A DNA stretch of 64,000 bases, from positions 32,001-96,000 of the IMG/VR virus record IMGVR_UViG_3300030118_001869; one strand, 5' to 3'. A program made the translations under genes and the position numbers. Position 1 is the first letter of the stretch, and each line of letters starts with the position of its first letter. The stretch is from a virus. The notes below the pieces were generated by a model that saw nothing but the letters and a program-made list of their open reading frames with translations, was not told the origin of the DNA and ran no database searches. This document shows positions 1 through 50,938 of the stretch, in pieces.

Positions 1-3000
1 CCATTTATTAAAAAACTAGGTGACAAATATACTGTAGCAGTTAAATACAAAGGTGAGACAGTAGGATTTGTAGCAAATGGACAGTATAAATTTGAGTTTG
101 AAGGCAAACCTTTGAACTTAAACTCTAGTCAAGATAGCCTGCAGTTCTTATTTGATATGAATAAAGCTGACATTGTTGAACAAGTTTTAGCAGCACAACA
201 TTTAGAAGCTACTCTAGACAAGCTGTATAAAGGAAAGACAGGAACAATAGATTTAAGTGTAGAAGATTTAAAGAAAGAAGGTATTAACTTTAATCTTAGA
301 GGTGAAATATTTAACTATGAAGGAACACCTAAAGCATTAGATACTTATGAAAATAATACATTTGAAGGTGGTCAACTAATAATTATTAGGAGAAAAACTG
401 CAGATGAGTTTGGTAATTTAGTAATTACTACAGATTATGTTTCTGGATTAGAAGAAGGAGCACAAGAGCAATTTGAAAAAGCAATCAAAGAAATAGATCA
501 AGATAAAAAGCTTAAAGAACAGCTATTAAGAAAAGGTTATACAGCTGTTTCAAGAAGACTTAATGGAAAAATACTTTTAATACCTCTTGATGTAGACTCT
601 GACGCACAAGAATTCCAAGACTTATTAGGAGAAATATCTGAAAAATCTAAAACTTTAAGTACAACTAATATAGATGATAAGGGTAAAGTAAAAGATGCTG
701 CTGCGTCAAAAGAAATAAATGCGGATATAAAAAGCAAAGTGTTTATTTCTGGCAAACCTGGTGATAAACTAACACTATCAATCAATGCAAAAGGTGATGT
801 TATACTGCAAGGTAAACAAGGTGGTAAAAGTGTCAATGCAAGCCTAACAGCAGAAGAGTATTCTATTAAAGGATTCAAAGGCTTGATAGATAAGTTTAAT
901 GAAAAGGGCAATATATCAACTAATAACTTTAGAGTTAATATACCTAAAGAAGCAACATTACAACAAATAAAAGACTCTACTACCTCTACTCTGCAAAGAA
1001 TCAGACCTGCAACAAATAGAGTAATATATTTTAGTGTAGACTCTGAAAGAAAAGAATCATCTAAGATTATTGAGAATCCACAACCTAAAGATCAAAATAC
1101 TAAAACAAATGACAAAGTAGACTTAGGTAAGGTATCAGAGATGTCTAAGAACTCTGATACAGTTGCACCAACTGACCAAATAGCTGAAGAGGTTAATGCT
1201 GCTATAGCTGCTAGAGATGCACTTAAGAAAAAAATATACAAAGAAGCAAAAGCTCAAGGATTAAATAGAGGTAAAGCACTAAAAGAAAGTAAAGAGTATA
1301 AAGCTGCTGTAGAAAAAGTAAATGAAGCAAAGAAAAAATTAAATGGTGAAGCATATAAAATATTACCTGAGAACTTTAATGGAGTTGAAACAGAGAAAGT
1401 AGATGCTTTTATAACTTGGGCTAATGAAAACTTACCAGAGTTTATTACTGTTGGTAATGTAAATGAAATAGGTAACAGGCTAAAGAACAATGGTATAACT
1501 GCTGGTGCATTTATTATGGCACTCAATGATATAGCAGGTAAAGTAAATATTAATGGTACCATATATGTAGGCACACATGGTTTCAGATACCATGAAGCAT
1601 TCCATTCTGTATTTAGAATGCTATTGACACCTGAAGAACAAAAGCAATACTTAGCTATTGCAAACAAAGAGTTGAGAGCTAAGCTAAGAAGAGAGGGTAA
1701 AAACTTTGAGGTTGAGTTACAAAACTTTAGAAATCTATCTGCACTATATAAAGGATTTAGTAGAGCAAGACTAGAGCAAGAGTTTTTAGAAGAATATATG
1801 GCAGATGAATTTGAGAAGTTCAAACAAGGACCTAAAAATTCTACTGCTGGCGGATTTATTAAATCTTTATTTACAAGAATACTTAACTGGATTAAGACTG
1901 TACTAGGAGGATTTAGTAAGAATCAACTAAAAACTCTGTTTGAAAACATAGATGCAGGTAAGTATAAGTCTAGGGGTATTGCTAATAATATGTTTACTAA
2001 TGCTTTGACACAAGGTATTACAGTTGATGCATATAAACTTCTACCTACTAAAGAGATAGCAGGAGACAGAAGAATAACATATGAATACCTAGATCCTAAT
2101 ACTGCAACGTTTTTAGTAAATAGTTTTGTATCAAGATTAATACAATTGAATGATAAGCCTGGGAGTAGATCATTAACTGAGATAGAAGATCAAGTATTTG
2201 ATGAGTTTGCTGACTTATATGACTCAACTAATTCTAGGTATGATAATATAACAGATGAGCAATATGACAGACTATTAGAGATAGAAGAAGCAATCAACTA
2301 CATGTCTGATACATCTTCTGCAGACTCACGTCCTCAGCTGATGTTAGCTGCTAGAGAAATGATAGATACATTCCAGCTTAAGTTAGATAATAATGCTGAT
2401 ATAAATGAAGTCTTTGAAAATAATCTAGGCCTTAGAACTACAGATCAGTTTGATACTGATGCTAGTATGAAAGGTGGTGTAACAGCTTTACCATTAAAGT
2501 TAAGACTATATATTGCTACAACAACCTTAGAAGATACAGACTACTTTGGTAATCAATTCTTAATTGATCCCGTTACTGATGAAAAAGGTAATATAACTAC
2601 AGAGGGAGAAAAACTAATTGTTCCAGTTGATATAGATGCTGTATATAATGGTATACTAAAAGCAGTGAAAAACAAAACAGATGCTTTTGACATATTATCT
2701 AGCTTATACGTATTTGGTAGAACAAATAAACACACTAAAGCATTTGTTGACAGATTGTTCAATGATATGGGTATAAATGGTGAAGAAATGATTGAGTCAG
2801 GTCAGTTACCAGAACTTGTAGGAAGACCTGGATTTGTAATGCAAGTAATTAAGTCATTCCAGAATGCAAGAGTAAATTATTTATTTATTCAAACTGACAC
2901 AGCAACAGGTAAAAACTTTTATTATGATGCTGCAACAAGAGATGCTGCTAAAACTCAGCTAGGTGCTTGGCAACAAATGTATGATCAAAAACTTAGTATA

Positions 3001-6000
3001 ATAAAGTCAGATCCTAGATTTAAAGGTAGAGTTCAAGCTACACTAAAAAGAGCAATAGGTAGACTTCAAGCAACTAGAGGAAGAATAGATAATACTAAGT
3101 TTGAGCTAGAGGCTATGAGATTATCTCAAGATATATTTGACGCTATAGGTATAAGATTTTCTCCAGCTTATTTGCAATTGAGTATGTTAAAAGCAAGTCC
3201 AGAAAACATAGCTAAAAAAACAAAAGCACAGCAGATATTATTAGATAACAATATTAATGTAAGATCTTTGAGTGTAGAGGATTTGTCTGCAATAAAGGAT
3301 ATTGTATTAGCAGGAGGTAATATATACGCAGAAAGTAGTGGTGCTGCATCAAGACTAACTGCACTAGCAATAGGTAATCAAAAACTAGATGAACAAGTAG
3401 GAGCAACAACATTTACAAATGCAGATGGTAATTTAGTTTATGCACATCAAATGCCTACATTCCATACAAGAATAATAGCAAAATTAAATGATGAAGACTT
3501 TATTGAAGAGTTGATAGAAAGATTCCCAAACAATCCTTTGATACAAAGTGAAGCATTTAGAACACTGTCAGCTGATAATAAAATAGAGCTTATAAGACTT
3601 GCAGGATTTAGAAAAGGTAGAATATCATTATCAGAACAAAATGAGATTATAAGTGATGGTACTAAAAGTGTTGCATATGCTAAAACCTACGGTAAGCAAT
3701 CACCTCAAGAATTTATTATAAACTTAGTAAAAGCATATACATTTAATTTCAATACAAATACTTTACAGAATAAACTAAGTAATGGACAGGCGCTGGTACC
3801 AACATTGATAAGAGTAATGGAAGCAAGTAATACAGGTGATATGATTAATCTACCTGTTATAAAAGCAGCGGAGTTACAAAACAAAACTTTGAGCATACCT
3901 AAAGAGGCACTAGATATATTTGTAACACAGATACAAAATGAATATGCAAGAATAGTTAGAGAAGTGCAGACTCCAACTCAGGATCTAATAGTAGGCTATA
4001 ATGCTGATAACAATGGTGTTTCTACACTAGATACAAAAGATGGTAGAGCATATAAATTGTTTAATACTAGGTATTTACTACCTGCAGATTCTGTAAAAAT
4101 ATTAGAAGAAGAAGCATATAAAGGTACACCATTTGCTGACGCAGCAAAGTTAGCAGTAGAGGGTGGATTTTATAATGCAGTTAAAAAGAGCTTACTAGAT
4201 GAATTTAATAAATTCTTTGACTTGGTAGGTAGTGATATAGCTAATGACGCAGGTTTTATAGCAGGAGTACAAAATGCTGATGGTAGTGTACAAGGAGAAG
4301 ATATAGCTATAGCTAATCAACAACTTAACTTAGTTCCAGGACAGTTTAAATTAAATCTAGCACAGATATATTTTAATGATAAAATTAATACCACTGCAAT
4401 AAATGAACTTATATTAGGTGATGAAGCAGTAACATTAAAAGATTCAATTGATAAAATCAAAAGAGCAAAAGGTCAAAATGGTGCTATACGTTCAATAGAC
4501 TTTGGCTTTACAGCACCAGAGTTAGGTATTAGACACAAATTAGAAAACATAGAAATATATCCTTTTACTGATCCTACATTTGAAAAGCAATCTGGAGAAG
4601 GAATGCAAGAACAAACTGATGGTCAAATATATAATACTGTAAAAGGATTCAGATATTCACAGTTTGGTATGGGTAATCTTACTGAGTCAATGGCAGATAT
4701 TCTTGATGATGTTCAGTTTGGTGACAATGTTCCTTCTGTAAGAATTAATAGTTATGTTAGTAAACAAAATGCTTTAAATTCTAAAAAGTTTGTATACTTT
4801 GATGGTCAAACATATATGAAGATGTCTAGTATTACTCTTTCTCCTGAGTTTACATCTCTTAAAGATGAGAACGGACTTTATACTATACCTAAACCAAATA
4901 AAGTAGAGCTACATAATCTTAGAGTTAAGATGGAGGCTTATGAAGAAACTAATGATGCTGTTGTCTTTGGTGCGCCTACTAGTGCATTAAAGATGTTAAA
5001 AAAGAATATAGATACATCTGATCAAGCATTTAGTGAAACTGCTTTAACCAAAGGTGATCTAACAACAGTTAAAGCAGAATTTATGGGCTTACAAATGGTA
5101 AATCCATCAAACAAGATTGAGATTACTTCTGGTACACAGATGAGAGTATTGCTTACAAGTGAACAGAATAATGTTGAAGAAGTAACAATAGATGGAGTAA
5201 AACTAAAGGTAAGAGATTTAAGAAATCTTTACAATGATAATATAGCAGGTAAAGTAGGATTAGCATATGGTCTAAAGAAAAAATTATTAATAGATGAACA
5301 AGGTAATATAGATTTATTTACCTTTTTAAAGTATGCAATCAGAAACTTAAAGTCTGCTAAAACAACAAGTAATATCATAGAACAATTTGAGATTGATGAG
5401 AACGGGCAAATGAAGTATGGTCTTAACTCACCACATATGGTAGAAAAAGCAGAGCAGCTATTCTTATCATATTTTAGTACTGCATTAAAAGATAAACAAC
5501 CAGGTATGAGTTTGGCTCTTATGTCAGATGCTGGTGTTAAGATATATAGAAGGGTATTTGAAGTAGATGAGAACGGAGTACCAACTAGATTTGAAGTAAT
5601 TAGAGAGAATGCATTCCATACATCTGGTTTAGCTGCAGACATAAATATATCCACAGATAATTTTACAGACTTACAAAATGCTCTTAAAAATACTGATGCA
5701 GGTGTTATTGTAGTTGATAGACTTAGATCTGATTTAGTAGATTCAGACGGATCAAAATACTCTGAGTTTATTATGCCAGCTCATTTCCAGTCTGTACATG
5801 ATGCTTTTTACAATAATGATCAGCCTTTACCAGATGTATTACAAAAGCATTTTGGTTTACGTATTCCATCTCAGGATAAACATTCCTCTATAAATTTAAG
5901 ACTTGTAGATTTCATGCCACATTATATGGGCTCTACCGGTGTATTTGCTAGAGAAATACTAGAGAGATCTGGGGCTGACTTTGATATTGATAAGCTATAC

Positions 6001-8535
6001 ACACATATGAAAGAGTTCTATGCAGAAGATGGAAAATTCTTTGAGTATGGTAAAAATGGATACAAGGATTATATGACTTATGTAGATAAAATGCTTTTAT
6101 CTGGTAAACCTAATATATTCAAAGACGCTTATGAAAAGTACAGTCAAGGTGTAGATAATGTAAAACCAGAGGATGTGAAAGCTGAAGTTCTCAACACATT
6201 AGGATTACCTATGACAGAGGAAGCTTATGATGCATATGTAAAAGAAAAGGGTGAACCATACGCTGCAGCTTACTCAAATAAAGACTTAGATTATAAGTAT
6301 GCTCTTTTAGGTAGTAAAGCAATGACAGAAGCAGCACCCGGTGAGACACCAATAGTTGCACAAGAAGCTGCATTGTCAAGATTACAAGCAGCTAGAACAT
6401 ATATGGAAAAAGAGGTTCCTGAGTGGGCTGCAGAAAATGCTGACGTAGATGTAGATGTTAATGGACTATTAGGTAAGTTTTTATCATATAAGAATAACAA
6501 AGAAGGAGCAGCAAACATTGGATTAGCTGTTAAACCTAATCTTGTATATAGTATAATGAGAGAATATAATGTTACTAATGATTTTAGAAAATCATTTACT
6601 ATAAATAAAAATAAAGCAGGAAATTTTGTAAGTAAAACTGAAAAAGAAAGAACAGCAATATTATTTGATGAGCTTATAACTGCAATGGTAGATAACGCAA
6701 AAGAAAGAATGGCAGTTAAGTTAGGTCTTAATAAAGAAAATTTACCTTTAGTATCTGCTGCAGTTGCAGTAGGTATACCATTGAATGACATAATATTATT
6801 TTTGAATGCTCCACTATTTAAACAAGATCCTAGACTACCAGCTATTGATGGTAAAGCTGTTTCTATAACTACAACAGAGATATTAAAAGATTATAAAGGC
6901 AAATCCTCTAGGGAGATACAACGCAAAATGAAGCAAATAAAATCAAGGTTAACTTCCATAGCTGCTGAAGCAAGAACTATGGGCTCTGTTATGAACTTAG
7001 ATAAAGGATTAGGAAAAGATTTTTCTAGTGTTTTGCAAACATCAAATGAAATAGCAAGATTAACAGATGATGGAACAGATGTGATATACAAAACATACTT
7101 TAATCAATACATAGAAATATTTGAAGATATTACTGATAATGTATTACCAAAAGTATTTTTTAGAGCTAATCCTAGATTTGTAGCTGCATTATCTAATATT
7201 TTAAAAGAGCAGGTATCAAGAACATTATTTGACACAACTAATCAAATCAATCTACAAAAGGTAAATAAAATATCATTAGACTTTTTGTCTTTCTTATTAA
7301 TTAAAAAATATCAAGATAAACTTTTAGAAAGCAATAGTAAAAGCGTAGGTTCTTTAAGTAATGAATTTATATATGAAACTGGTAAAGGAGAGTCTGTTAT
7401 TGATGTTGTAAAAAAATTAAGAAAGCTTTCAAAACAAGATAATTATTTCTTAAATAATTTCTTACAAACAGTAGAAGCAACAGATCCTAATAGCAAAGAT
7501 GGTTTAAATAAAGTAGTATCTAACACCTTTGCTAGATTAAGTGATAATCAAAAAGTCAAAATACAGAATGGTTTTGCAGCATTGTATGGAGATGCACTTA
7601 CAAGACCAGATGCAATAAAATTATTACACTACATTATAATCAAAGATGGCTTACAATTTAATACGGGATCTATAATGGAAGCATTATCACCATTTGTACT
7701 AGAACACTTTTTAGATAAAACACAAGATGGCATAGAGGTTACAGATGAACTAAGAGATGAGTTTATTAATGGGTATTTTGCAAGTCCAACATCACAAGGA
7801 TATTTGACAACAATACTTCCTAAAGATGTAAGCGACAGTAAAAAAATAGTAGATAAAAAAGAAACCTATAGTTTTGACCCTGAACAAGCTTTTGAAACAG
7901 GGATAGAAGGTCAAGAATATATAATGATTGGCAACGGGTTATTCAAAAAACAACCAGCAACTAGTAAAAATATTGATTATGCTAGAGTTGAGTTTATGGG
8001 TAGTGTAGGTCAAAATGGTATTGGTTTTATGTTTAATACTCCAGGATTTCAAAGACCTAGTACTAGAAGCATACAGAATAAACAAGACAACAAATCATCA
8101 AAAAATCTAAAAGAAACATTAGCTGATCAAGCTGAACTAAATAGATTAGATGCATTAGGTTTTGATCCTGGTGCAGATATCACAGCTAATGAAAAAATGA
8201 TAGAAGTTGGCAAGCAAAAAATTAGTAACTTAGTAAAAGAAAGAACTGAGGCAGTAGAAGTACCTGAAGAACAAGCAGATCAATTTGATTCTGTTGAGGG
8301 AGAAGTTTTACCTCAAACAACTAGTAAGATAAGAGATTTACTGAAAAGTAAAACAGGTATTAATGAACAAGTACTAGGAGACTTTTGGAACAGTGAGATA
8401 AATGATAACCAAGAAAGAAAACAAAAGCTTGGATATGACACATATGGTAATATGCTAGCTGCATACAGAAGTGTGAATAATGTGTTTCCATTAACAGAAG
8501 AAGAGTTTATAGAACAAACAAGATGTAAATTTTAA
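1..8535 (+). CDS. Giant virion-packaged DNA-dependent RNA polymerase of crAss-like phages with an N-terminal zincin-like domain (5'-truncated)
   Basis: Frame 1 is open from base 1, so the TTG at 112 is not the true start. SGADFDIDKLY (DFDID at 5977-5991) is the two-barrel RNAP metal-binding motif as in phi14:2 gp66, preceded by LRIPSQDKHS. YHEAFH (1591-1605) plus downstream EEYMADEF is a zincin motif. Confidence 0.9.
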   Translation, partial: PFIKKLGDKYTVAVKYKGETVGFVANGQYKFEFEGKPLNLNSSQDSLQFLFDMNKADIVEQVLAAQHLEATLDKLYKGKTGTIDLSVEDLKKEGINFNLRGEIFNYEGTPKALDTYENNTFEGGQLIIIRRKTADEFGNLVITTDYVSGLEEGAQEQFEKAIKEIDQDKKLKEQLLRKGYTAVSRRLNGKILLIPLDVDSDAQEFQDLLGEISEKSKTLSTTNIDDKGKVKDAAASKEINADIKSKVFISGKPGDKLTLSINAKGDVILQGKQGGKSVNASLTAEEYSIKGFKGLIDKFNEKGNISTNNFRVNIPKEATLQQIKDSTTSTLQRIRPATNRVIYFSVDSERKESSKIIENPQPKDQNTKTNDKVDLGKVSEMSKNSDTVAPTDQIAEEVNAAIAARDALKKKIYKEAKAQGLNRGKALKESKEYKAAVEKVNEAKKKLNGEAYKILPENFNGVETEKVDAFITWANENLPEFITVGNVNEIGNRLKNNGITAGAFIMALNDIAGKVNINGTIYVGTHGFRYHEAFHSVFRMLLTPEEQKQYLAIANKELRAKLRREGKNFEVELQNFRNLSALYKGFSRARLEQEFLEEYMADEFEKFKQGPKNSTAGGFIKSLFTRILNWIKTVLGGFSKNQLKTLFENIDAGKYKSRGIANNMFTNALTQGITVDAYKLLPTKEIAGDRRITYEYLDPNTATFLVNSFVSRLIQLNDKPGSRSLTEIEDQVFDEFADLYDSTNSRYDNITDEQYDRLLEIEEAINYMSDTSSADSRPQLMLAAREMIDTFQLKLDNNADINEVFENNLGLRTTDQFDTDASMKGGVTALPLKLRLYIATTTLEDTDYFGNQFLIDPVTDEKGNITTEGEKLIVPVDIDAVYNGILKAVKNKTDAFDILSSLYVFGRTNKHTKAFVDRLFNDMGINGEEMIESGQLPELVGRPGFVMQVIKSFQNARVNYLFIQTDTATGKNFYYDAATRDAAKTQLGAWQQMYDQKLSIIKSDPRFKGRVQATLKRAIGRLQATRGRIDNTKFELEAMRLSQDIFDAIGIRFSPAYLQLSMLKASPENIAKKTKAQQILLDNNINVRSLSVEDLSAIKDIVLAGGNIYAESSGAASRLTALAIGNQKLDEQVGATTFTNADGNLVYAHQMPTFHTRIIAKLNDEDFIEELIERFPNNPLIQSEAFRTLSADNKIELIRLAGFRKGRISLSEQNEIISDGTKSVAYAKTYGKQSPQEFIINLVKAYTFNFNTNTLQNKLSNGQALVPTLIRVMEASNTGDMINLPVIKAAELQNKTLSIPKEALDIFVTQIQNEYARIVREVQTPTQDLIVGYNADNNGVSTLDTKDGRAYKLFNTRYLLPADSVKILEEEAYKGTPFADAAKLAVEGGFYNAVKKSLLDEFNKFFDLVGSDIANDAGFIAGVQNADGSVQGEDIAIANQQLNLVPGQFKLNLAQIYFNDKINTTAINELILGDEAVTLKDSIDKIKRAKGQNGAIRSIDFGFTAPELGIRHKLENIEIYPFTDPTFEKQSGEGMQEQTDGQIYNTVKGFRYSQFGMGNLTESMADILDDVQFGDNVPSVRINSYVSKQNALNSKKFVYFDGQTYMKMSSITLSPEFTSLKDENGLYTIPKPNKVELHNLRVKMEAYEETNDAVVFGAPTSALKMLKKNIDTSDQAFSETALTKGDLTTVKAEFMGLQMVNPSNKIEITSGTQMRVLLTSEQNNVEEVTIDGVKLKVRDLRNLYNDNIAGKVGLAYGLKKKLLIDEQGNIDLFTFLKYAIRNLKSAKTTSNIIEQFEIDENGQMKYGLNSPHMVEKAEQLFLSYFSTALKDKQPGMSLALMSDAGVKIYRRVFEVDENGVPTRFEVIRENAFHTSGLAADINISTDNFTDLQNALKNTDAGVIVVDRLRSDLVDSDGSKYSEFIMPAHFQSVHDAFYNNDQPLPDVLQKHFGLRIPSQDKHSSINLRLVDFMPHYMGSTGVFAREILERSGADFDIDKLYTHMKEFYAEDGKFFEYGKNGYKDYMTYVDKMLLSGKPNIFKDAYEKYSQGVDNVKPEDVKAEVLNTLGLPMTEEAYDAYVKEKGEPYAAAYSNKDLDYKYALLGSKAMTEAAPGETPIVAQEAALSRLQAARTYMEKEVPEWAAENADVDVDVNGLLGKFLSYKNNKEGAANIGLAVKPNLVYSIMREYNVTNDFRKSFTINKNKAGNFVSKTEKERTAILFDELITAMVDNAKERMAVKLGLNKENLPLVSAAVAVGIPLNDIILFLNAPLFKQDPRLPAIDGKAVSITTTEILKDYKGKSSREIQRKMKQIKSRLTSIAAEARTMGSVMNLDKGLGKDFSSVLQTSNEIARLTDDGTDVIYKTYFNQYIEIFEDITDNVLPKVFFRANPRFVAALSNILKEQVSRTLFDTTNQINLQKVNKISLDFLSFLLIKKYQDKLLESNSKSVGSLSNEFIYETGKGESVIDVVKKLRKLSKQDNYFLNNFLQTVEATDPNSKDGLNKVVSNTFARLSDNQKVKIQNGFAALYGDALTRPDAIKLLHYIIIKDGLQFNTGSIMEALSPFVLEHFLDKTQDGIEVTDELRDEFINGYFASPTSQGYLTTILPKDVSDSKKIVDKKETYSFDPEQAFETGIEGQEYIMIGNGLFKKQPATSKNIDYARVEFMGSVGQNGIGFMFNTPGFQRPSTRSIQNKQDNKSSKNLKETLADQAELNRLDALGFDPGADITANEKMIEVGKQKISNLVKERTEAVEVPEEQADQFDSVEGEVLPQTTSKIRDLLKSKTGINEQVLGDFWNSEINDNQERKQKLGYDTYGNMLAAYRSVNNVFPLTEEEFIEQTRCKF

Positions 8536-8537
8536 TT

Positions 8538-11500
8538 ATGGCATGTTTTAATAAAAATACAGCAGAGTACAAAGAACTAAAAGCAGAGTTTGGTCAGGAT
8601 ATAATTGTTGACGCAGCAATTATCAATTACCAAAGAACTACTAATAGTACTATTATACCTAATCTTGTTCAGGTACAGCAAATGGAATCTGATATGAAGG
8701 TAATGTACTCAACTATGAAGAGGGAGTTTGGTCAAGCTTTAGTAAGAAACCTAATTGAAAAAAAGCTAGCCACTAAAAAATACAAAGGATACCATTATGT
8801 AAATGCTACTGACGGCCTAAGCTTTGTTGCTAATCAAAGTATACTGAATAAAAATATTGAAAAGATATATAAATATTTGGATGCTAATAATATTCCTGCG
8901 GATACAGTTAGTATAGAGAGAACTAAGAGATCAGCACGTATAACAGTTAATGATGGTCTCTTTAAGATAAATGATATAGTTCCTGAGAACAGACCTGCGG
9001 ATACTACAAGGACTCTTGCAATAGTAGAACATCTAGGAAGAATGTTTCCACAAGTTCAGATAGATGTTGTATCTGTAGCACAAGCTAGAGAATACTATAA
9101 CTCTTTAGACCCAAGACAAAAGGCTAGAGTAAAGTTTGATGATATAAAATCATATTATGTAAATGGTAGAGCTGTCCTAATTCAAGGTAGAGTAAACTCT
9201 AATACTGCAATAGAAGAAATACTACATCCATTTGTAGATGCAATAAAAGTAGAGAACTCTGAGTTGTTTGATAACCTATTAGAAGAATCCAAAGAAACCT
9301 TTGCAGAACTAAAACAACAGATAGATGATACGTATAGTAACAAAAATGGATTTAATCAATTACATAGAGATCTAGAACTAGTTACACAATCATTAACTAG
9401 ACACTTTGCATTAGAGTATGAGACTACACCTTCTCAATCATTCTTACAAAGAGTAAAGGATTTCCTTGCATGGTTTGCAGGAGTTTTAAACAACTTACAT
9501 AAGTACATTACGGGTGATGCTACGCCTGTATTTAAGGTGAGTCAGATTCAAGCAAGAACAAATCTTTCTGACATAGCAAAGATACTTAACACAACTGATG
9601 TAAGTTTTCAGCTGGAAATGAAAGCAGATGGAAAGGTTAGATATGCTTTATCACCTGAAAAGCAGAAGATAGTAAATCATATTAAAACTCAAGCAAATGA
9701 TACTCAAAAGCAGATAATAGATAGACTTTTTAGTATTGCACAAAAACAATCAGATAGTATTGACTCACTATCAGCAGGGTCAGTAGTAGGTGAAAGCATT
9801 GTAATACTAAATGAGGAAAACCACACTTATTATGATATCACAACAGGTGAAGCATTTACATCCGCCACAAGAGCTATTTATGGTAAGTTAGAAAATGAAG
9901 CAGAGCTACAGGAAAACTTAGCAGTAGGTAATGACTTTGATGCAGTTGTAAATGCTATTTTATCAGATATAACTGCAGACCAGTTATTTGAAGATTTACA
10001 ACAAGTAGAAAACAGTAAGTTTAAGAATGACAAAGCACTAGTAGATAAAGTCTATACTGATATAAGTACATTTTTATTAGGTTTAAGAGCAGATGGTACT
10101 GTTTTCATACCCCAGGTAGTTGTATTTGATAAGAACGCTAAAATAGCAGGAACTGCAGATATTGTAGGAATTACACCAAAAGGCACAATAAAGATTATAG
10201 ATCTTAAGACTAGCAAAACACCGTATGCTAGCACTGCAAGAGAACAGTACAAAAGACAATGGGCTGTACAAAATGATAGTTTTCTAAAACCAAAAGGTGT
10301 AGAAATGTTATCTACTAGAGCTAGACATGGTATGCAAGTAAATATGTATAGAAGAATGTTTGAGAATATGGGCTATGAAGTTGAGACAGGTCCTTTTTCT
10401 GCACAGACATTCCATATTCATGTAGATATCTCAGGCAAAGGTGTAAATCAAAAATTCTTAGGTACATATAGAATGGATGGTATGGTAGTGCATCCTCCAT
10501 CTTTAAATCAAGATTATATTGATATGCTGATACCTGAAGATCCAGATATTATAGCACAAGATAAAATAAAGGAGATAAGAAAACAAGGTAGAATGTATGA
10601 TCCAGTAAATGATCCTGATTTTATAGAAGATGATTTAGAGTATCCAACAAGCCCACAGTTTGACCAAACGAGATATCAAAGTATTAATAGTAGTATAAAA
10701 AATTATCAGAAACATTTACAAGAACGTAAGCAAGCCCTAGAAAATTATAAGAAAAGATTATTTGTAGATAAGACGAATGAACAGGCATTACAGTATACGA
10801 ACAATGCATTAGCCACTATAATGCTTGCGTTGGATACGACTAACCCTGATCAAGTTGCACTACAAAGTAATGTTTTTGTTCAGCTTATACGTGATGCAAT
10901 AAAGGAGATGGACACATTTCTTAACTTTATAAAAGATGAAAAGAACTTTAATGATCCTAACTTTATTACATATTTATTGAATATTAAAAAGTTTACTAAC
11001 TCTTACCTTGCTTTAAGAAGTATTTCTGAGTCAGGTATTCTCAATAAGACAGAGGGACAACTATTAAATACACTTACTACTAAAGTACAAAGCTTGGACG
11101 GCACTGATTATGATCAAGGCTTGATAAGACAAGCAATGTTAGACTGGGCCGAGAACTATGTAAAGAATAACTCTAACAGAGATTTTACTAAAGAACAGCT
11201 AAAAGATCTTGTGAGACAAGCAGAAGATATTAGTTTTCTAGATTTAAATACCAGAGACTTAGCTACTTTGCCTGACACACTACTTGCTCTTATTGCAAAA
11301 GAATTTAGTAGAGCCAGATTAAGAGGACAGGCTAGAGCAGAAGAGGCAAATACAAAGACAAGAGCTTTGGGTAATACATTATATAGACTTAGTGATAGTA
11401 AAAAACCAGAAGAAGTTTTTGAGTTTATGGCTGAAATGGATAATGGTAAGTTTACAGGAAGATTTGTACAAAAACTAGGTGATAAATATTATGGTAAGTT

Positions 11501-31968: not shown

Positions 31969-32952
31969 TTATAAATTAACCCTTCTTACTAAGAATTCAT
32001 AGGGTAAATTAAAGTTTTTGGTGTCAAAATGGTATTTTGCAGCCTCTAAAGCGTTAAATAAGTCATTCATCCAGCTTGACATAGACTCAATTGATACATT
32101 AAATATGTAAACTTGATCATAACTATCAATAACAATAAATCTAAATCTTATAGTATAATCTTTCTTGTCATCCGGTAGATTTTCAAAGACTAATTTACTA
32201 TATATAGAAGATTGTAACCAGTAATTATAGTACTCTACAGTATCTTTGAAGTCAGTAATACTCTTTGATGTTGTCTTCAAATCATATATAGTTACTTCCT
32301 TTGTGTCATCATTAATTTCATAGAAGTCTATATAGCCATGTAAACCAAAGTTATAGTCCTTTAAATCACACTGTAGATATGCTTCTGCATGTGTAGTTAT
32401 AGGATCTAATTCAAAGTCTGATTTCTTTTGAGCCAATGCTGTTTGAACTTCTTCATTACTATTTAGTAGCTCAACTCTTTCTTTGCATTTATTAAGAGTA
32501 TCAAGATCTATAATGTTCTTAATATCATTCATAATAAATGCCCAGTAATCTGCATTGTCTGCAGTCCTGATCTTAGCTAACCTCTGCTCATCTTTCTTTA
32601 GTGACTGATACAGGTTAATCTCTTTAAGAGAATCTAATATAACAAAGTCTTCAACTTTCTCAAGCGTAACAGCATCTGTGTAGTTAGTCATATTATATAA
32701 TACTTTCTTTACACTATCTGATGGTGTCTTACCTGGGACAATCTTAAACTTTTCATTAAGCTTGTCTGCTTCAAATAGAAGGCAGTGTATAACACTACCC
32801 TCTATAAGATGCTTGTCTAACCTAATCTCTTTTTCTTTCAGTATATAATCCTTATAAAATAAAGAAGGAGAGAATAACAATCTATTCAATGAAGAATAGC
32901 TGAAGTTAAAGTCCTTGCTAAAGAACTCCTCTTCTTTTTGTTTATCTACCAT
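31969..32952 (-). CDS. PD-(D/E)xK exonuclease (RecE/ExoVIII-like)
   Basis: SYSSL, GSVIHC, GYIDF...IYDLKTT and YWLQ..IY. Confidence 0.8.
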   Translation of the reverse strand: MVDKQKEEEFFSKDFNFSYSSLNRLLFSPSLFYKDYILKEKEIRLDKHLIEGSVIHCLLFEADKLNEKFKIVPGKTPSDSVKKVLYNMTNYTDAVTLEKVEDFVILDSLKEINLYQSLKKDEQRLAKIRTADNADYWAFIMNDIKNIIDLDTLNKCKERVELLNSNEEVQTALAQKKSDFELDPITTHAEAYLQCDLKDYNFGLHGYIDFYEINDDTKEVTIYDLKTTSKSITDFKDTVEYYNYWLQSSIYSKLVFENLPDDKKDYTIRFRFIVIDSYDQVYIFNVSIESMSSWMNDLFNALEAAKYHFDTKNFNLPYEFLVRRVNL

Positions 32953-32953
32953 T

Positions 32954-33082
32954 TTATTTAAATAAGAATAAAAGTAATATTATAGCAAAGCATACAAGTA
33001 AACTATAGCCTGCAACCTTTTCAGTTTGCTCTACTCTATACTTACTTCTACCTTGTCTATATTTAAAATCATCTTCTGTCAT
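32954..33082 (-). CDS. Small C-terminal-TM peptide (42 aa)
   Basis: MTEDDFKYRQGRS...SLLVCFAIILLLFLFK, translated by hand. Confidence 0.5.
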   Translation of the reverse strand: MTEDDFKYRQGRSKYRVEQTEKVAGYSLLVCFAIILLLFLFK

Positions 33083-33236
33083 AGTTACTTAATTTTTGTT
33101 GAAGTTTTTGAATTTGTAATTTTCTCTTGGAACTAAATGGTAAAGATTTTAATTTAAGTATTTCATCAATTATTTTATCTTGATCTTTACGTAAATATTC
33201 TTTACCATTCTCTCCAAAATGCCCCAGATCTCCCAT
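33069..33236 (-). CDS. Small hypothetical protein (55 aa)
   Basis: MGDLGHFGENGKEY...; fills the gap between operon genes. Confidence 0.5.
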   Translation of the reverse strand: MGDLGHFGENGKEYLRKDQDKIIDEILKLKSLPFSSKRKLQIQKLQQKLSNYDRR

Positions 33237-33238
33237 AG

Positions 33239-34438
33239 TTAAAATGGTAAATCATCAAAGCCGTCAGGCTGAGTTAGTTCTTCTATAATCTCTTTTCCTG
33301 ATTGCTTTTTAATAATACAGTTTTTATACTCCGGTGCAAGTTTAATATCCTCTATACTAACATTAAATACAGGATTCTTGTCCTTACCAAAACCATATCT
33401 AACTACTACTTCTTTATGTACAGTTTCTCTAATAGTTTTCCAAGCCCATTCTGTTAATGATTGCTCTTTAACTAATTCAGCCATAAGCTTTTCATAAACT
33501 TGTATCTGATAATAGTTTGTATTATGTGGAGTAATATCTTGTAAACGCTCTCTCAAAGCTTTTACATTTACTGTATTCCAGTTATTTGCATACCGTATAT
33601 CATCATAGTTCATTGTCCACATAAATGCTACTTTATCTAGGCATTCCTCTACATTACAATTAGCAAGCATTTCTACAGCTAATGATACTGCATCATTATC
33701 TCCTGATTTTAACATCTGTGTTGTACTTACAACTTCATCCTCTGTAATTATATGTGAATCTTCATTACATATCTTGTTAATACACTTATCTAATACAAGA
33801 CGGTTCTTTGTAAGTTCTCTGAATTGATTTACGTTTTCATTCTCAAGTATTACAGAATAATTACCAGGATAATTATTATCCTCAATAAACTTTCTAGATG
33901 CTTTATTCCAATCATCATAGAATATATTTATTTCATCAGATGAATTATAACTATATCCAGTTTTAATTGCAACATGACAAGTGTCACCTAGCTTATTATA
34001 AAGAGATTCAATGTTATCAATAAAAGAATCACTATATATAAACTTATCACTATGCTTTTTTAGTGTTTCTATAAATAGATTTAAATAATCTTTTGTATAG
34101 TAATTATCCCAAGTTTCCGTTAGAAGACTTGCAACTAGTTTATTAGATACAATACTGTAATTAGCTTTCTTCTGATCTCTAACAACTCTTACATTATATT
34201 TATCTTTTAATGTATCTAGTTTTACCCTAGGTAATGATAACTTAGGATATCTATATAATGTAGCACCATCTATTTCAATCATATCTGGTTCAGTTGCAAT
34301 ATCTAATTTTACTAGGTTTGCTACTGGTTCATTCCAACCAGTTTTTGCACCTACAAAATATCCAACATTGTCAACCTTACCTTCAAGCTTTTCTTTAGAT
34401 GAGTCACTACTTATGGTTAATCTATATGCTCTATTCAT
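33239..34438 (-). CDS. Hypothetical protein with BRCT-like segment, ending DDLPF
   Basis: Paralogous in pattern to 34431-35453. Confidence 0.7.
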   Translation of the reverse strand: MNRAYRLTISSDSSKEKLEGKVDNVGYFVGAKTGWNEPVANLVKLDIATEPDMIEIDGATLYRYPKLSLPRVKLDTLKDKYNVRVVRDQKKANYSIVSNKLVASLLTETWDNYYTKDYLNLFIETLKKHSDKFIYSDSFIDNIESLYNKLGDTCHVAIKTGYSYNSSDEINIFYDDWNKASRKFIEDNNYPGNYSVILENENVNQFRELTKNRLVLDKCINKICNEDSHIITEDEVVSTTQMLKSGDNDAVSLAVEMLANCNVEECLDKVAFMWTMNYDDIRYANNWNTVNVKALRERLQDITPHNTNYYQIQVYEKLMAELVKEQSLTEWAWKTIRETVHKEVVVRYGFGKDKNPVFNVSIEDIKLAPEYKNCIIKKQSGKEIIEELTQPDGFDDLPF

Positions 34439-35453
34439 TTTTTTCTAATTTTAAATATTCACGATACTCAGGTTTTACTGCAACCTTAAAGACATACAAA
34501 TCTCTATTAGAAATTCTTATCTCTTTTCTTACTATAGGCTCCAAGTATCTGAATGCTCTTGAAGTTAATAAATTATTTTCTTTTAGCCAAACAATCATCA
34601 TCTCTGCAGTATAGTCTGTATAATCTTCAATACCTGAGTTATGATACCAATACTTTAGATCTTTATCTCTTCTAGCATAGTATATTTCATTACCACATTC
34701 TTGAGAAAGTTTCCATAATAGATGACGATTAATATCTGGATCTATTGTAGGAAGCATCTTGAATGCTAATGCTCTGTCATCTCCTCCTGCATTTATTTGT
34801 GATATTAGCATGTTAAGCATATCATGTGTTAGGGCTTGTCTTGTTGAAGATTCACCCATCACAGTTTCTACATCTATAACTGGAAAGTTCTGAGTACCTA
34901 TCATATAAGATAATACTAGTGCAGCACCTGTAAAGTAATCCATTTCATATAAGCTATCACTATCCTCATCATCCCATGACCATGTTCCACCATACTCTGC
35001 TTCATCTTTCTCTTGTTGATATAACAAATACACATCATTTCCTTTGATATGGTATGCATGATAGTTCCAAAGACTTGCTAGCAACATTTTAGTATTTATG
35101 TTAGCACTGCTTTGATATTCTCCACTAATAGAATGATGAGTTATCACTGCATCAGCTTCATTTATATCAGTGGTAAGTTTTATACCATGCTCTTTCAAGT
35201 TCTCCTTCAATCTATCTTGGCTTACACCACAGTTTGGAAGAAGAAATACTTTTTTATATCCCTGACCAATCAACGTTTTCTGTGTTGGTTTAGTTAATAT
35301 CTGTTGTATCTCTTCTCTTTTTGTAGGATCCTGTGCTAAATATACAGGTAGTAGAGTACCGTAGGCAGACACATAGTGTACTTTACTTGTGTCTGCCAAA
35401 TTGTGGTAATCTAATACAGTTTTATCTACATGTGTAAAAATGTATTTACTCAT
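34431..35453 (-). CDS. Hypothetical protein with BRCT-like segment
   Basis: VFLLP...QDRLKE.LKEHGIKLTTDINEADAVIT resembles the BRCT beta1-alpha1-beta2-beta3 pattern. Confidence 0.7.
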   Translation of the reverse strand: MSKYIFTHVDKTVLDYHNLADTSKVHYVSAYGTLLPVYLAQDPTKREEIQQILTKPTQKTLIGQGYKKVFLLPNCGVSQDRLKENLKEHGIKLTTDINEADAVITHHSISGEYQSSANINTKMLLASLWNYHAYHIKGNDVYLLYQQEKDEAEYGGTWSWDDEDSDSLYEMDYFTGAALVLSYMIGTQNFPVIDVETVMGESSTRQALTHDMLNMLISQINAGGDDRALAFKMLPTIDPDINRHLLWKLSQECGNEIYYARRDKDLKYWYHNSGIEDYTDYTAEMMIVWLKENNLLTSRAFRYLEPIVRKEIRISNRDLYVFKVAVKPEYREYLKLEKNE

Positions 35454-35455
35454 AA

Positions 35456-36736
35456 TTATTTCATTGTCATTTTAATAATTTCTGGTTTCATCATTAGCTT
35501 ACTAAACTTCTGCTTGTTACCATTATAGATAGTCCTTACAATAAGATATTTTAAATCATTTGTAAAGTAATCTTTTGTACATAATGCTTCAAGCCTATCA
35601 GTAATCTTTTGACTCACTGTATTATCTTTAGAATATACAACCGCATAGTTTGCAAGTCTTGTAGCTAATGTAGATGCAATGTCAGCACGATATGCATCTC
35701 CATCACCAATACATCCTTTTAACTCACCAAGTATGTAATCTTGGTTATCATGAGTTAACAGATCCATTGGTGTTACAAGCTTATCTAACTTATTATTAAT
35801 AAATGTAGTGAACATTGATGCAAATGCATCTCCTACACTACCTTCACCAATTAACTGTATCAAGGATAAGTTCTTTTCAAAAGACTCAAAGCTTGATATA
35901 GAATTAAAGAAGGTTGTTATAGACCTTGCATTTGTTTCTTGACTTACAAGCTCTGGATGCAATAACAAGAAGTTAATACATCTTGTATCTATATTTGCTT
36001 CTTCTGCCCATCTAGCCCAAACATTCACATCATACTTTAGATTTGCAGTAATATATCTAGTCTTCTGTGCTGCGTCAATACTATTAACCATATAGTCTCC
36101 ATTGTCTGGATTTGCTGTCAATATAATATGCCAGTCTTCTGGTAATGTCCATGATATATACTGCTGTCTATCTACTAACTCCATCACTGCTTGTATGAAT
36201 CTCATATCAGCACGGTTCCAGTCATCTAATAATAGTATACCACCTTTTTTCTTATCAGCAATCCACTCAGGTGCACAGTAAGACATTCTATTCTTACCGG
36301 TCATCTTGTATCCTTGCTTAAGATATTCTTGTACTGCAAGTTCATCTACCCAAGATCCTATCTTTTTTGTTACAGTATTAGTAGTATTAAGATTAGCAAG
36401 GCTAGCGCCACCAGCTCTTTGTGCTGCTGTTACCATCTGTAAGTCATCACTACTGCTCTTTACGGGTATTTGCTTCTCTGTATACATTTGGAACTGACGT
36501 ACAGGAAAACCTACAAGGTCACCTATCTCTTCTATCTGTGATAGATTTAATTTAACAAAGTCAAGGTCATTCTCTTTTGCAAGTTCAATAACCGTTGAAG
36601 TCTTACCAATACCAGACTCACCAAGTATTTCTACTGAGACAGGATTCTTACCTTCTTTTCTTATATGTCTATTGTTTGTAATGATATGATTTACAAACCC
36701 TTTTAATTCATCAATATTTAAATTTACTTCTGCCAT
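35456..36736 (-). CDS. MoxR-like AAA+ ATPase
   Basis: Walker A GESGIGKT, GDLVGFP, Walker B LLLDDWNRA, TANP, D.AQKTR and the NARS sensor. Confidence 0.85.
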   Translation of the reverse strand: MAEVNLNIDELKGFVNHIITNNRHIRKEGKNPVSVEILGESGIGKTSTVIELAKENDLDFVKLNLSQIEEIGDLVGFPVRQFQMYTEKQIPVKSSSDDLQMVTAAQRAGGASLANLNTTNTVTKKIGSWVDELAVQEYLKQGYKMTGKNRMSYCAPEWIADKKKGGILLLDDWNRADMRFIQAVMELVDRQQYISWTLPEDWHIILTANPDNGDYMVNSIDAAQKTRYITANLKYDVNVWARWAEEANIDTRCINFLLLHPELVSQETNARSITTFFNSISSFESFEKNLSLIQLIGEGSVGDAFASMFTTFINNKLDKLVTPMDLLTHDNQDYILGELKGCIGDGDAYRADIASTLATRLANYAVVYSKDNTVSQKITDRLEALCTKDYFTNDLKYLIVRTIYNGNKQKFSKLMMKPEIIKMTMK

Positions 36737-36743
36737 TTTAATT

Positions 36744-37898
36744 TTAATTTAATTGTATTTTTAATCCTGGTAACTCTTCATTGATACTACATTGACTGCT
36801 ATGAACCCATAATGCATTCTTAGGACAGTTTTCTGGAGTATAAGCCTCACCATCTGTTAAATATATTAGTGCCGTATAAGCACGCTTTTTATTATAGTGA
36901 TCAATAACTGGTTGGAAGTCTGTACCTCCTCTACCTTTTATTTCCCAATCTTTTTTTGGATTAAATTCTTCTATAGAATTAATCTGTGTGTCACACTGTA
37001 CTACTGTAATCTTGTGACCCGTCTTATGCATATGGTTTATTTCATTCATAAACTCTTTCAACTCATCAGTTGATACTGAGCCAGATGTATCTACACCAAC
37101 ACATACATGATTCTTAGTTTTAATCTTCAAACCAGGGTTATCACTATATCTTTTATTATACTTACGTCTCAGCTTTTTTGTATACACTACACTTGAGTTC
37201 CCAACAAATCTCTTGAGATATGCTCTCCAGTTAAATTTAGGTGGCTCTACATTAAGTAGCCTGCGTATCAGTTCAGCTAACTCACCAGGTATATTACCTC
37301 TTCTCTTTTCTGTTTGCTGTGCTACTTCTTTTATCTGATGCTCTATCTGTTTCTTAATCAGTTTCTTTTCTGACTCAGGTAGATTATCAAATTCATCCCA
37401 TGTGCTGTGGCAATAACAAGACGTCCCATCCATTTGATCTAATAAGTTATCTAGAGATGGAGATGATCCGCTATCCTTTGCTTCAGATAACAAATCATAA
37501 TAAGCTTTTGTACCTGCCTTAGTTGGTAATTTAAGTTCAGGAAAACTTTCCAATACTAAACCGCCTTCTGGTAGGCATCTGCTACTTATATATTGATTAA
37601 TCTCTAAATCTGCAGCTATATTAAATAACTGTTTATCAGCATAAAGATCTCTAACAAGTAGATGTCCAAATGATATATGCAATATCTCATGTTTGAGTAG
37701 TCCTTTTCTTGTGTCATCAGTTAATGATCCAAAATATTCAGGATTGATAGTGAGCTGAACTCCAATACCGTTTTGCATAACACCAGCTGTTGGTATGTCT
37801 TTTCTATAGGTTTTATTTAAACCAACAATAAAGAGCCCGTAAAAGGGCTCCTCAAGTATTAATGTTTTAGTTGCTTTTGATAATTGGTCTTTTACCAT
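36744..37898 (-). CDS. Zincin metallopeptidase-like + vWA protein (DUF2201-like)
   Basis: HEILH, NIAADLEIN, MIDAS motif DTSGS, GRGGTDF and LTDG. Confidence 0.85.
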   Translation of the reverse strand: MVKDQLSKATKTLILEEPFYGLFIVGLNKTYRKDIPTAGVMQNGIGVQLTINPEYFGSLTDDTRKGLLKHEILHISFGHLLVRDLYADKQLFNIAADLEINQYISSRCLPEGGLVLESFPELKLPTKAGTKAYYDLLSEAKDSGSSPSLDNLLDQMDGTSCYCHSTWDEFDNLPESEKKLIKKQIEHQIKEVAQQTEKRRGNIPGELAELIRRLLNVEPPKFNWRAYLKRFVGNSSVVYTKKLRRKYNKRYSDNPGLKIKTKNHVCVGVDTSGSVSTDELKEFMNEINHMHKTGHKITVVQCDTQINSIEEFNPKKDWEIKGRGGTDFQPVIDHYNKKRAYTALIYLTDGEAYTPENCPKNALWVHSSQCSINEELPGLKIQLN

Positions 37899-38245
37899 TT
37901 TAATTGTACTTTAATATTATCTATGAAATCAAACGTGTTAATATCTGTTATACTATTATTTATATTAGTACTCAAGAGGTAAGTAAACACTTCCTGTACC
38001 TCTAACTTTCTCTTCTTACATTCATGGTATAATGCTTTGTAAGTAAACTTATCTGGGTTAGGCCAGTCAACAGTTGGGAACTCTTTAATAAAGTCCTTGC
38101 GTCTTGATCCGGTTAACTCTTTAGCAAACAATAGCTTATATATAGAATCAACTTCTAGGTTATGTATATTAGATACTGCTATCTCAAAGTCTGCAGTATC
38201 ACCTTTTAATTGTTTAAGTGTATTTATAAAATTATCTAAGTTCAT
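37892..38245 (-). CDS. Hypothetical protein
   Basis: 117 aa, coupled to both neighbours. Confidence 0.7.
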   Translation of the reverse strand: MNLDNFINTLKQLKGDTADFEIAVSNIHNLEVDSIYKLLFAKELTGSRRKDFIKEFPTVDWPNPDKFTYKALYHECKKRKLEVQEVFTYLLSTNINNSITDINTFDFIDNIKVQLKW

Positions 38246-38592
38246 TAATCATTTATTTTTAAAGCTTTCATCATCCAAGAGGGTCTTTGGTTTGCTATAA
38301 TACAAGTCATCCATTCTTTTGCAGATGGTATGTAATTGTTACAATCCTCTTTTACATGTTGTTCTCCAACATATCTTGTATATACTGTTTTACCATCTGA
38401 ATTTGTAAAACTTTTGCCAAATATTTTTTCAGCTTCAAATATCCCTTCAGAGTGATGACGGAACATTCTATGATTAGAATGACCTAACCATTTTTTAGTT
38501 TCATCAAACCAATCATGTATAGCTTGATAGTCACTAATCTTTCCGCCCCACTTCCTACAAGAACTCTTGCTGTGTAGTAATGGGTGTGCCAT
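38245..38592 (-). CDS. DUF6915-like His-rich protein
   Basis: MAHP..H..SS.RKWGG, IHDWFD, HR..RHH.EG and EQHV.ED. Confidence 0.7.
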   Translation of the reverse strand: MAHPLLHSKSSCRKWGGKISDYQAIHDWFDETKKWLGHSNHRMFRHHSEGIFEAEKIFGKSFTNSDGKTVYTRYVGEQHVKEDCNNYIPSAKEWMTCIIANQRPSWMMKALKIND

Positions 38593-38620
38593 ATTATAAT
38601 TTTGAATTAGCCAAGCATTA

Positions 38621-38642
38621 GCTTGGGAGAAATATAATTAGG
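38621..38642 (-). promoter_or_regulatory. Phage-specific early promoter-like motif, copy 1
   Basis: Minus strand CCTAATTATATTTCTCCCAAGC. Near-identical copies at 42541, 50917 and 52840. Confidence 0.65.
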
Positions 38643-38657
38643 ATTTAAAAGAGGGTT

Positions 38658-39119
38658 CTAGTGGTCATATGTTCCACCTAGTTGTCCCATTCTAACATGT
38701 ATAAGTCTCTGTGGAAGAACCTTATCATTATAGATTGTTTCTCCTATGGAAGAATACTCTTCTGTTGTCCTTTGATGGTAATCTAAATTCCATTTACCTG
38801 TTGTAACATCTATATGCATAGTACCATAGCCACCTTCATTATTAACCCAGTCACCATGTTTACAAGCATGATCATCTACAAATTCATAGAATAAATCTCT
38901 TATTTGATTATCAAATTCTTGTGGATTATCTGCTTGGTATGCATCAGACCATGAACTGTTACCATTCATATCTGTAAATTCTATATCATCTATGTCACCA
39001 CTATCACCAGATCCTGAGAAATTAATGCTTATTTGCTTTACTCCTCTGTCTTTTAGTGCTAGTAGTAGAGACGCTTTTATTATTTTTTCTTGTTCTTTGT
39101 CTACTTGCTGGTATAACAT
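38658..39119 (-). CDS. DUF6878-like acidic protein
   Basis: FSGSGDSGDI and DWVNNEGGYG motifs. Confidence 0.7.
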   Translation of the reverse strand: MLYQQVDKEQEKIIKASLLLALKDRGVKQISINFSGSGDSGDIDDIEFTDMNGNSSWSDAYQADNPQEFDNQIRDLFYEFVDDHACKHGDWVNNEGGYGTMHIDVTTGKWNLDYHQRTTEEYSSIGETIYNDKVLPQRLIHVRMGQLGGTYDH

Positions 39120-42540: not shown

Positions 42541-42562
42541 GCTGGGGAGAAATATAAATAGG
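42541..42562 (-). promoter_or_regulatory. Phage-specific early promoter-like motif, copy 2
   Basis: Minus strand CCTATTTATATTTCTCCCCAGC. Confidence 0.65.
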
Positions 42563-50916: not shown

Positions 50917-50938
50917 GCTTGGGAGAAAAATAAATAGG
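50917..50938 (-). promoter_or_regulatory. Phage-specific early promoter-like motif, copy 3
   Basis: Minus strand CCTATTTATTTTTCTCCCAAGC. Confidence 0.65.

Follow-up and report, generated by a model that had tools for sequence, protein, structure and literature searches.

A duplicated family of partner proteins around an N4 gp24/gp25-type AAA+ and vWA-peptidase pair in the replication block of a crAss-like phage

The locus

The DNA analysed here, which we call the window, is a stretch of 64,000 nucleotides (positions 32,001 to 96,000) from the IMG/VR virus record IMGVR_UViG_3300030118_001869. It contains a module of five minus-strand genes that encode an AAA+ ATPase, a protein with a zincin-like peptidase domain and a vWA domain, and three partner proteins that we call p117, p340 and p399. 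The module combines a known pair of proteins, of the type of gp24 and gp25 of coliphage N4, with a new and duplicated partner family, and it lies within the replication genes of a crAss-like phage. Its genes are the following, in the order in which they are read:

37892-38245, minus strand: p117, a small helical protein and paralog of p340 and p399, tied by its profile to a family of bridging proteins
36744-37898, minus strand: zincin (HExxH) and vWA protein, 384 aa, with the domains DUF2201_N and DUF2201
35456-36736, minus strand: AAA+ ATPase, 426 aa, matching phrog_1297 with E = 4e-35
34431-35453, minus strand: p340, 340 aa, studied through an AlphaFold2 model and profiles
33239-34438, minus strand: p399, 399 aa, studied through an AlphaFold2 model and profiles

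An earlier interpretation made from the letters alone (the sequence-only reading) had listed these genes, and all of them lie where it placed them, on the minus strand.

The host genome of the module is an uncultured marine crAss-like phage. The complete record is 114,106 bases long and is estimated to be 99% complete; the GC content of the window is about 32%. An open reading frame (ORF) of 2807 aa at positions 112-8535 of the plus strand carries the motif DFDID at residue 1956 and is followed by an ORF of 1896 aa. Motifs of the DFDxD type are a catalytic signature of the virion RNA polymerase (RNAP) of crAss-like phages (bioRxiv 10.1101/2020.03.07.982082). The genome thus has both a giant RNAP-like protein with DFDID and a replicative module on a single strand, the features by which we assign it to the crAss-like phages (Crassvirales). 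The neighbours of the p340 model in the BFVD database also come from crAss-like viruses.

The module sits within a long minus-strand run of replication genes. The block begins with a DnaB-like helicase, a Sak4-like ATPase, a primase and RusA. These are followed by DUF6878, DUF6915, p117, the zincin-vWA protein, the AAA+ ATPase, p340, p399 and a small ORF (p55), and the block ends with a PD-(D/E)XK-type exonuclease, two small proteins and a family-B DNA polymerase (PolB). Seven of these genes, from DUF6915 to p55 (38592-33069, minus strand), are packed tightly: at their junctions they either overlap by 1-8 nt or leave gaps of 2-7 nt, and the ATPase and zincin-vWA genes are separated by 7 nt. 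Genes for ribonucleotide reductase (RNR) lie elsewhere within the window, and the capsid and terminase genes are distant from the module. A megablast search with the region returned no match. In phi14:2, a crAss-like model phage, the entire replicative module is expressed early and transcribed by the virion RNAP (bioRxiv 10.1101/2020.03.07.982082).

A known ATPase and peptidase pair

Judged by its sequence, the ATPase belongs to the MoxR/AAA_5/midasin assemblage and is a homolog of N4 gp24. The sequence-only reading had called it a MoxR ATPase. This label is approximate at the family level; the protein scores below the cut-offs of both relevant Pfam models: 16.7 bits against a cut-off of 27 for AAA_3 (MoxR, PF07726) and 16.8 bits against 22 for AAA_5. 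The best PDB match of the ATPase family profile is to the AAA modules of midasin (E = 3e-7); the CobS-like phrog_249 is matched weakly (E = 1e-6). Walker A (GESGIGKT) is canonical and invariant among relatives. Walker B (LLLDDWNRA, residues 168-176) has Asp in place of the catalytic Glu, and this too is invariant, in 21 relatives; N4 gp24 and PBS1 gp213 have DE at this position.

The second protein matches DUF2201_N (PF13203; E = 1e-17, 65 bits against a cut-off of 23.2) and DUF2201 (PF09967; E = 2e-18, 67.2 bits against 26.4), both above the cut-offs, and phrog_1314 with E = 7e-69. The HExxH residues H70, E71 and H74 (HEILH) are invariant in 20 relatives, as are H79 and E99 and the residues of the metal ion-dependent adhesion site (MIDAS), D270, S272, S274, T326 and D349. 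The protein can therefore be read as a zincin-like metallopeptidase domain fused to a vWA domain with an intact MIDAS, and as a homolog of N4 gp25. With this protein as query, tblastn matched 491 phage records, which include N4 gp25, PBS1/AR9 gp214 and numerous jumbo phages.

The PHROGs database and many GenBank phage records label phrog_1314 as an HNH endonuclease. For this vWA-zincin family the label looks like a propagated annotation error; we saw no nuclease domain here.

With adjacent genes that match PHROG 1297 and PHROG 1314, the window carries the same pair as N4, where gp24 (AAA+) and gp25 (vWFA) are homologous neighbours (ATPase hidden Markov model (HMM) against gp24, E = 4e-6; DUF2201 HMM against gp25, E = 6e-21). 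In N4 and PBS1 the order of the two genes is reversed relative to the window, although their adjacency is the same. The surroundings also differ: the N4 pair lies outside the virion module, between RNAP2 and the dCTP deaminase and rIIA-like genes, whereas the pair in the window lies between RusA/primase and exonuclease/PolB. N4 gp24 and gp25 are among the 17 core proteins of the Schitoviridae, with function unknown (PMC7650795). A pair of the same architecture, an N-terminal zincin fused to vWA beside a MoxR-like ATPase, has been described in jumbo phages, for which a role in virion assembly or processing was proposed (Iyer et al. 2021, PMC7824862). The pair in the window differs from that one in its replication context and in its dedicated partner family.

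There is a common principle behind systems of this kind. In midasin/Rea1, RavA-ViaA, CbbQ-CbbO and NorQ-NorD, the AAA ring acts on a partner protein by way of an adaptor that carries the MIDAS and grips this partner, and in this way the MoxR and midasin machines remove proteins from complexes. Compared to midasin and the MoxR-vWA systems, the pair described here is made of two separate small proteins and has a peptidase domain added.

A duplicated partner family

The sequence-only reading had noted segments shared between p340 and p399, and a helical motif that recurs in p117. BLASTP among the three proteins of the window gives nothing significant (E = 1.5-8), and taken alone this comparison would have led us to reject paralogy. 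More sensitive comparisons lead to the opposite conclusion. We collected relatives for the two larger partner families (317 and 90 proteins, aligned as A1 and A2). The p340 and p399 family profiles have two collinear weak matches (P = 0.003 and 0.12), and the helical motif of both larger families is also matched by the profile of the p117 positional homologs (P = 0.003 and 0.001, where control pairs give P values of 0.05-0.5). The segments noted earlier in p340 and p399, BRCT-like and helical, coincide exactly with the places that the profiles align.

Decisive were proteins that bridge the families. With the p340 family as query, a full HMMER search of 1.84 billion representatives recovered 256 proteins. 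Some 40 of them, with lengths of 340-420 aa, are recognized by the p399 HMM too, with scores of up to 41 bits. When aligned with hhalign, the profile of this bridging set matches the p399 family with a probability of 98.9% (E = 1.1e-17, 328 columns) and the p117 family with a probability of 90.6% (E = 1.3e-6, 103 columns; bridge positions 229-341 against p117 positions 11-113). Control comparisons of the bridge profile with the AAA and vWA proteins give P values of 0.3-0.5.

More distant phages provide a second line of evidence. Three of them (loci L091, L093 and L095) carry two adjacent copies that are less diverged than those in the window. In such phages the p340 HMM matches the second copy with E = 4e-12, and in L091 even plain BLASTP aligns the adjacent copies over 315 residues (E = 6e-7). 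Because of the bridge-profile matches and these less diverged neighbours, we regard the three-way paralogy as established: p117, p340 and p399 form one family that arose by duplication, and p117 corresponds to the C-terminal ARM/HEAT-like helical domain of p340 and p399 alone.

The family has left few traces elsewhere. In 50,697 phage records, tblastn found no match to p340, to p399 or to either of two bridge proteins. NCBIfam and PADLOC had nothing for any of the partners, the PADLOC matches being within noise. Profile searches of PDB sequences with the p399 and bridge families brought up no relevant match, a search of the ESM Atlas returned no usable match, a related-locus search with P0306 found none, and a word-index search with the bridge alignment found only four proteins. 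We did not find the partner family in the literature searched either. Hence, although the AAA/vWA-peptidase pair is already known, its partner family is apparently undescribed in that literature.

Predicted folds of p340 and p399

AlphaFold2 models built from the family alignments are confident, with a predicted local distance difference test (pLDDT) score of 85.8 for p340 and 87.7 for p399, whose last 20 residues drop to 56-62. The two models suggest the same architecture. In p340 an N-terminal beta/alpha part is followed by a BRCT-like domain split by a beta-rich insertion (about residues 62-204) and an ARM/HEAT-like domain (about 205-335). In p399 the model has a beta-hairpin N-terminus, a split BRCT-like domain (55-228), an ARM/HEAT-like domain (229-350) and a flexible C-terminal tail.

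These assignments come from VIA-align, run against 48,161 representative chains, in which both models independently yield the same two sets of neighbours, BRCT domains and ARM/HEAT repeats. For each model about a dozen to twenty of the top 50 neighbours are BRCT domains (XRCC1, TopBP1, PARP4, MCPH1, ECT2, Rev1, Dbf4, MDC1 and others), with Z scores of 5.2-6.8 for p340 62-204 and 5-6.2 for p399 55-228. The alignments cover 68-80 residues of domains that have about 95. Since these aligned residues are spread over the much longer spans 62-204 and 55-228, the BRCT-like domain is probably split by an insertion of 70-90 residues. The ARM/HEAT neighbours include beta-catenin, STAG1/2, AP complexes and importins; the corresponding Z scores (5-6.7 for p340 205-281 and 5-6.5 for p399 229-308) are below the level that VIA-align considers safe for helical repeats. 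Foldseek found nothing in the PDB for either model. In BFVD it aligned the p340 model with full-length proteins of crAss-like viruses (E = 3e-7 to 5e-6), two of them from one virus.

The sequence-only reading had described a BRCT-like segment in both proteins, and for a fold of this kind there is partial support. In its favour, BRCT neighbours recur for two independent models. Against it, the Z scores are modest and there is no match above threshold at the level of sequence, and for these two reasons we speak of BRCT-like domains and not of members of the BRCT family. A profile search of the PDB found no BRCT match; among the 40 members of the bridge family, one matches PF00533 with E = 0.004 and another PF16589 with E = 0.016. 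BRCT domains such as those of XRCC1 and TopBP1 typically serve as scaffolds in replication and repair. Compared to those scaffolds, the domain in p340 and p399 is split by an insertion, scores only Z = 5-6.8 and lacks significant sequence similarity. Its beta1-alpha1 region contains conserved basic residues (R63, R71, K73, K78 and R87 in p399; R81 and K87 in p340).

Another idea was that the shared helical motif might supply a MIDAS ligand with its conserved Asp. It was dropped, as a helix-turn-helix with D/N-x-x-x-A is an ordinary HEAT/ARM signature.

The tail of p399 deserves attention in its own right. The C-terminal tip of bacterial single-stranded DNA-binding protein (SSB) has the form D-D-D-I/L-P-F. 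The protein p399 ends in DGFDDLPF, with DDLPF as its last five codons (33242-33256, minus strand), on a low-confidence and probably flexible tail. By its letters it matches the pattern of an SSB docking motif, an acidic tail with D-D-[IL]-P-F at the extreme C-terminus. Relatives in the nearest subclade keep the DDLPF tail down to about 40% identity. A few other branches have it as well, the p340 family never. The likeness to SSB is limited to this tip, which only part of the family has, and no oligonucleotide/oligosaccharide-binding (OB) fold was detected in p399.

Conservation across related phages

We surveyed 91 IMG/VR loci, 80 found through the p340 family and 11 through the p340 protein itself and the bridge proteins. 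In 90 of the 91 loci the order p117, vWA-zincin, AAA, p340, p399 is conserved as far as the contig extends, and the module always lies between RusA and the exonuclease. In nearly all loci the gene immediately upstream of vWA is a positional homolog of p117 (95-159 aa); only an ORF of 52 aa takes its place in two of them. The survey thus confirms the expected linkage of the partner genes with the ATPase/vWA pair.

The one exception is L089 (positions 1029-5583 of IMGVR_UViG_3300044642_000126), which has DUF6878, DUF6915, a p117-like gene, vWA and AAA, followed by a single BRCT/ARM protein before the exonuclease. This single copy could be either the unduplicated state or the result of a loss. 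We at first took it for the ancestral state and have withdrawn this view: L091, L093 and L095 are equally distant lineages and carry two copies, so that loss in L089 is just as likely.

The proteins of the block differ strongly in how well they are conserved. Median identities to the window, calculated over the same 72 distant loci for all proteins, are as follows:

AAA: 80.8%, the highest in the block
PolB: 70.6%
vWA-zincin: 69.8%
p340: 40.5%
p399: 30.6%
p117: about 27%

The partners are the least conserved proteins of the block. They evolve three to four times faster than the engine formed by the ATPase and the zincin-vWA protein, which is compatible with a role as adaptors.

In L093 (positions 3407-9001 of IMGVR_UViG_3300013126_000102) a LAGLIDADG ORF splits the vWA-zincin gene, and the AAA gene is in three pieces with two inserted GIY-YIG ORFs, one of them with NUMOD1. 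Such insertions of homing endonucleases are typical of conserved, indispensable genes.

What the module may do

Our tentative reading is that the partners serve as adaptors and deliver the AAA+/MIDAS/zincin engine to proteins located at the replication fork. The five proteins would work together, with the fast-evolving paralogs placing the engine on its substrates. The basic BRCT-like domain could contact DNA ends or phosphorylated partners, and the SSB-like DDLPF tail of p399 would fit the pockets of replication and repair proteins that interact with SSB. The MIDAS of the vWA domain would grip the bound protein, the AAA+ ring would pull and the HExxH domain may cut. The likeliest field of action would be the replication fork, either in the assembly of the phage replisome or in the capture and removal of host proteins that interact with SSB.

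Several kinds of evidence lead us to this reading. The module keeps its position among replication genes in 91 loci, its genes are tightly packed and paralogs flank the pair. The BRCT-like and ARM-like folds recur in two independent models, conserved basic residues lie in the BRCT-like domain, and p399 has the DDLPF motif on its flexible C-terminus. The HExxH and MIDAS residues are invariant, conservation within the block is highest for the engine and lowest for the partners, and homing endonucleases have inserted into the AAA and vWA genes of L093. The replicative module of phi14:2 is early and the N4 pair is not among the virion genes. Finally, the MoxR/midasin principle itself is well established.

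A number of observations weigh against this reading. Asp in place of the Walker B Glu throughout the lineage suggests that ATP turnover may be slow or weak. The Z scores of 5-6.8 for the BRCT and ARM neighbours are below the safe level of the tool, and Pfam BRCT matches neither p340 nor p399 above threshold. The DDLPF tail is missing from most relatives of p399. N4-like and PBS1-like phages have the pair without detectable members of the partner family. Conserved linkage is also not independent evidence, because the whole replication block is syntenic. Better arguments for a functional tie are the overlapping reading frames and the fact that family members bracket the pair. This bracketing survives in all sampled lineages, including those that vary in DUF6878/DUF6915, in p55 or in copy number.

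One could also argue, with the sequence-only reading, that the module serves to defeat the defences of the host, with interchangeable adaptors that recognize immunity proteins and an engine that unfolds or cleaves them early in infection. This is a serious possibility, even if on balance an unlikely one. Partners that evolve fastest next to an engine that evolves slowest, in a family that has duplicated and lost copies, are what one would expect of adaptors facing the host, and expression is probably early, as in phi14:2. In a HIDEN-SEQ transposon screen, the MoxR ATPase bas54_0063 of coliphage Bas54, which shares the MoxR-type label with our ATPase, is reported to be needed specifically to overcome the predicted defence system DS-28 (bioRxiv 10.1101/2025.11.20.689424). 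Bas54 belongs to a different phage group, and no partner family has been described for its ATPase. However, no PADLOC model matches beyond noise. The fixed location of the module among genes for replication speaks for a role in DNA transactions and not for any one defence system, and so do the BRCT-like fold and the tail that resembles SSB. The pair is part of the core of N4-like phages (PMC7650795), whereas genes that counter defence tend to be accessory. A simpler possibility is that p117, p340 and p399 are mere neighbours, that is, independent scaffolds or organizers of replication, and that the AAA/vWA pair is a separate unit between them. All genes of the block are equally syntenic, N4 and PBS1 manage with the pair alone, BRCT and ARM domains are typical stand-alone scaffolds, and BFVD shows the fold in crAss-like viruses. 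We nevertheless consider this unlikely, as members of one family flank the pair with overlapping or abutting frames in an arrangement kept in all lineages sampled.

Two further explanations start from what MoxR-vWA pairs do elsewhere. CbbQO, NorQD and CobST insert metals or cofactors, and the module might likewise be a classical MoxR chaperone that matures a phage enzyme such as RNR or the polymerase, with DUF6915 as metal carrier. A His-rich protein does head the packed unit, RNR genes are present in the window and the ATPase has its weak CobS-like match. Yet most related loci retain the engine but lack DUF6915, an intact peptidase motif would be unexpected in a pure insertion chaperone, and BRCT/ARM partners have no precedent in such systems; we think this quite improbable. 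We give even less credence to an assembly chaperone with a maturation protease for the virion. The archaeal virus ATV depends on a MoxR-vWA system to develop its tail, and for the homologous pair such a role has been proposed in group 2.2 jumbo phages (PMC7824862). Here, however, the pair belongs to the replicative genes, in a module and on a strand that phi14:2 expresses early, the capsid and terminase genes are far away and the predicted folds of the partners are of the DNA-metabolism type.

The reading we prefer, adaptors at the replication fork, can be taken one step further. The paralogs might be exchangeable adaptors, and p399 might mimic the tail of SSB and pull SSB-interacting host proteins of replication, repair or defence, for example of the RecQ, ExoI or PriA type, off the fork, so that they can be extracted or cleaved. 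In this specific form the proposal is doubtful. If true, it would for the first time assign a function and substrates to the N4 gp24/gp25-type pair, which is core to several large phage groups.

The pair is core to N4-like phages and widespread in jumbo and crAss-like phages. To this pair the lineage studied here adds dedicated, duplicated and fast-evolving partners. These offer handles on the function of the pair: to which proteins the partners bind, and whether these are then cut or released by the engine. They also make DNA replication or host takeover, and no longer virion assembly, the probable setting in which the pair acts.

Accessory genes and a recurrent upstream motif

Around the five genes lie further features:

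38658-39119, minus strand: DUF6878 protein, 153 aa (PF21798, E = 7e-16), upstream of the motif
38625-38642, minus strand: 18-nt motif CCTAATTATATTTCTCCC, intergenic, about 33 nt upstream of the start codon of DUF6915
38245-38592, minus strand: DUF6915 protein, His-rich, 115 aa (PF21866, E = 2e-39; phrog_8143, E = 2e-36), first gene of the packed unit
33069-33236, minus strand: p55, a small basic ORF of 55 aa, last gene of the packed unit

DUF6878 and DUF6915 are accessory genes outside the core. Where one is present the other is too, and the two sit immediately upstream of p117. They are found in a minority of related loci, several distant lineages included, and are missing from the largest sub-clade. 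The small p55, separated by a gap of 116 nt from the exonuclease gene, was detected only in loci L001-L014 and L083; it is restricted to close relatives and does not belong to the core either.

The sequence-only reading had suggested that the unit is headed by its own early motif. No common motif was found upstream of the early transcripts of phi14:2 (bioRxiv 10.1101/2020.03.07.982082), and the word "early" is for this reason provisional. Sigma-70-like promoters and terminators occur at the frequency expected by chance. The motif itself is present upstream of the packed unit and it is recurrent: CCTAWTTATWTTTCTCCC has three exact minus-strand copies in the window (38625-38642, 42545-42562 and 50921-50938), each about 30 nt upstream of a minus-strand gene. 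It is a candidate promoter or regulatory site at the head of the unit or of the replicative block, and it is kept at the same two intergenic places in relatives of about 62% identity.

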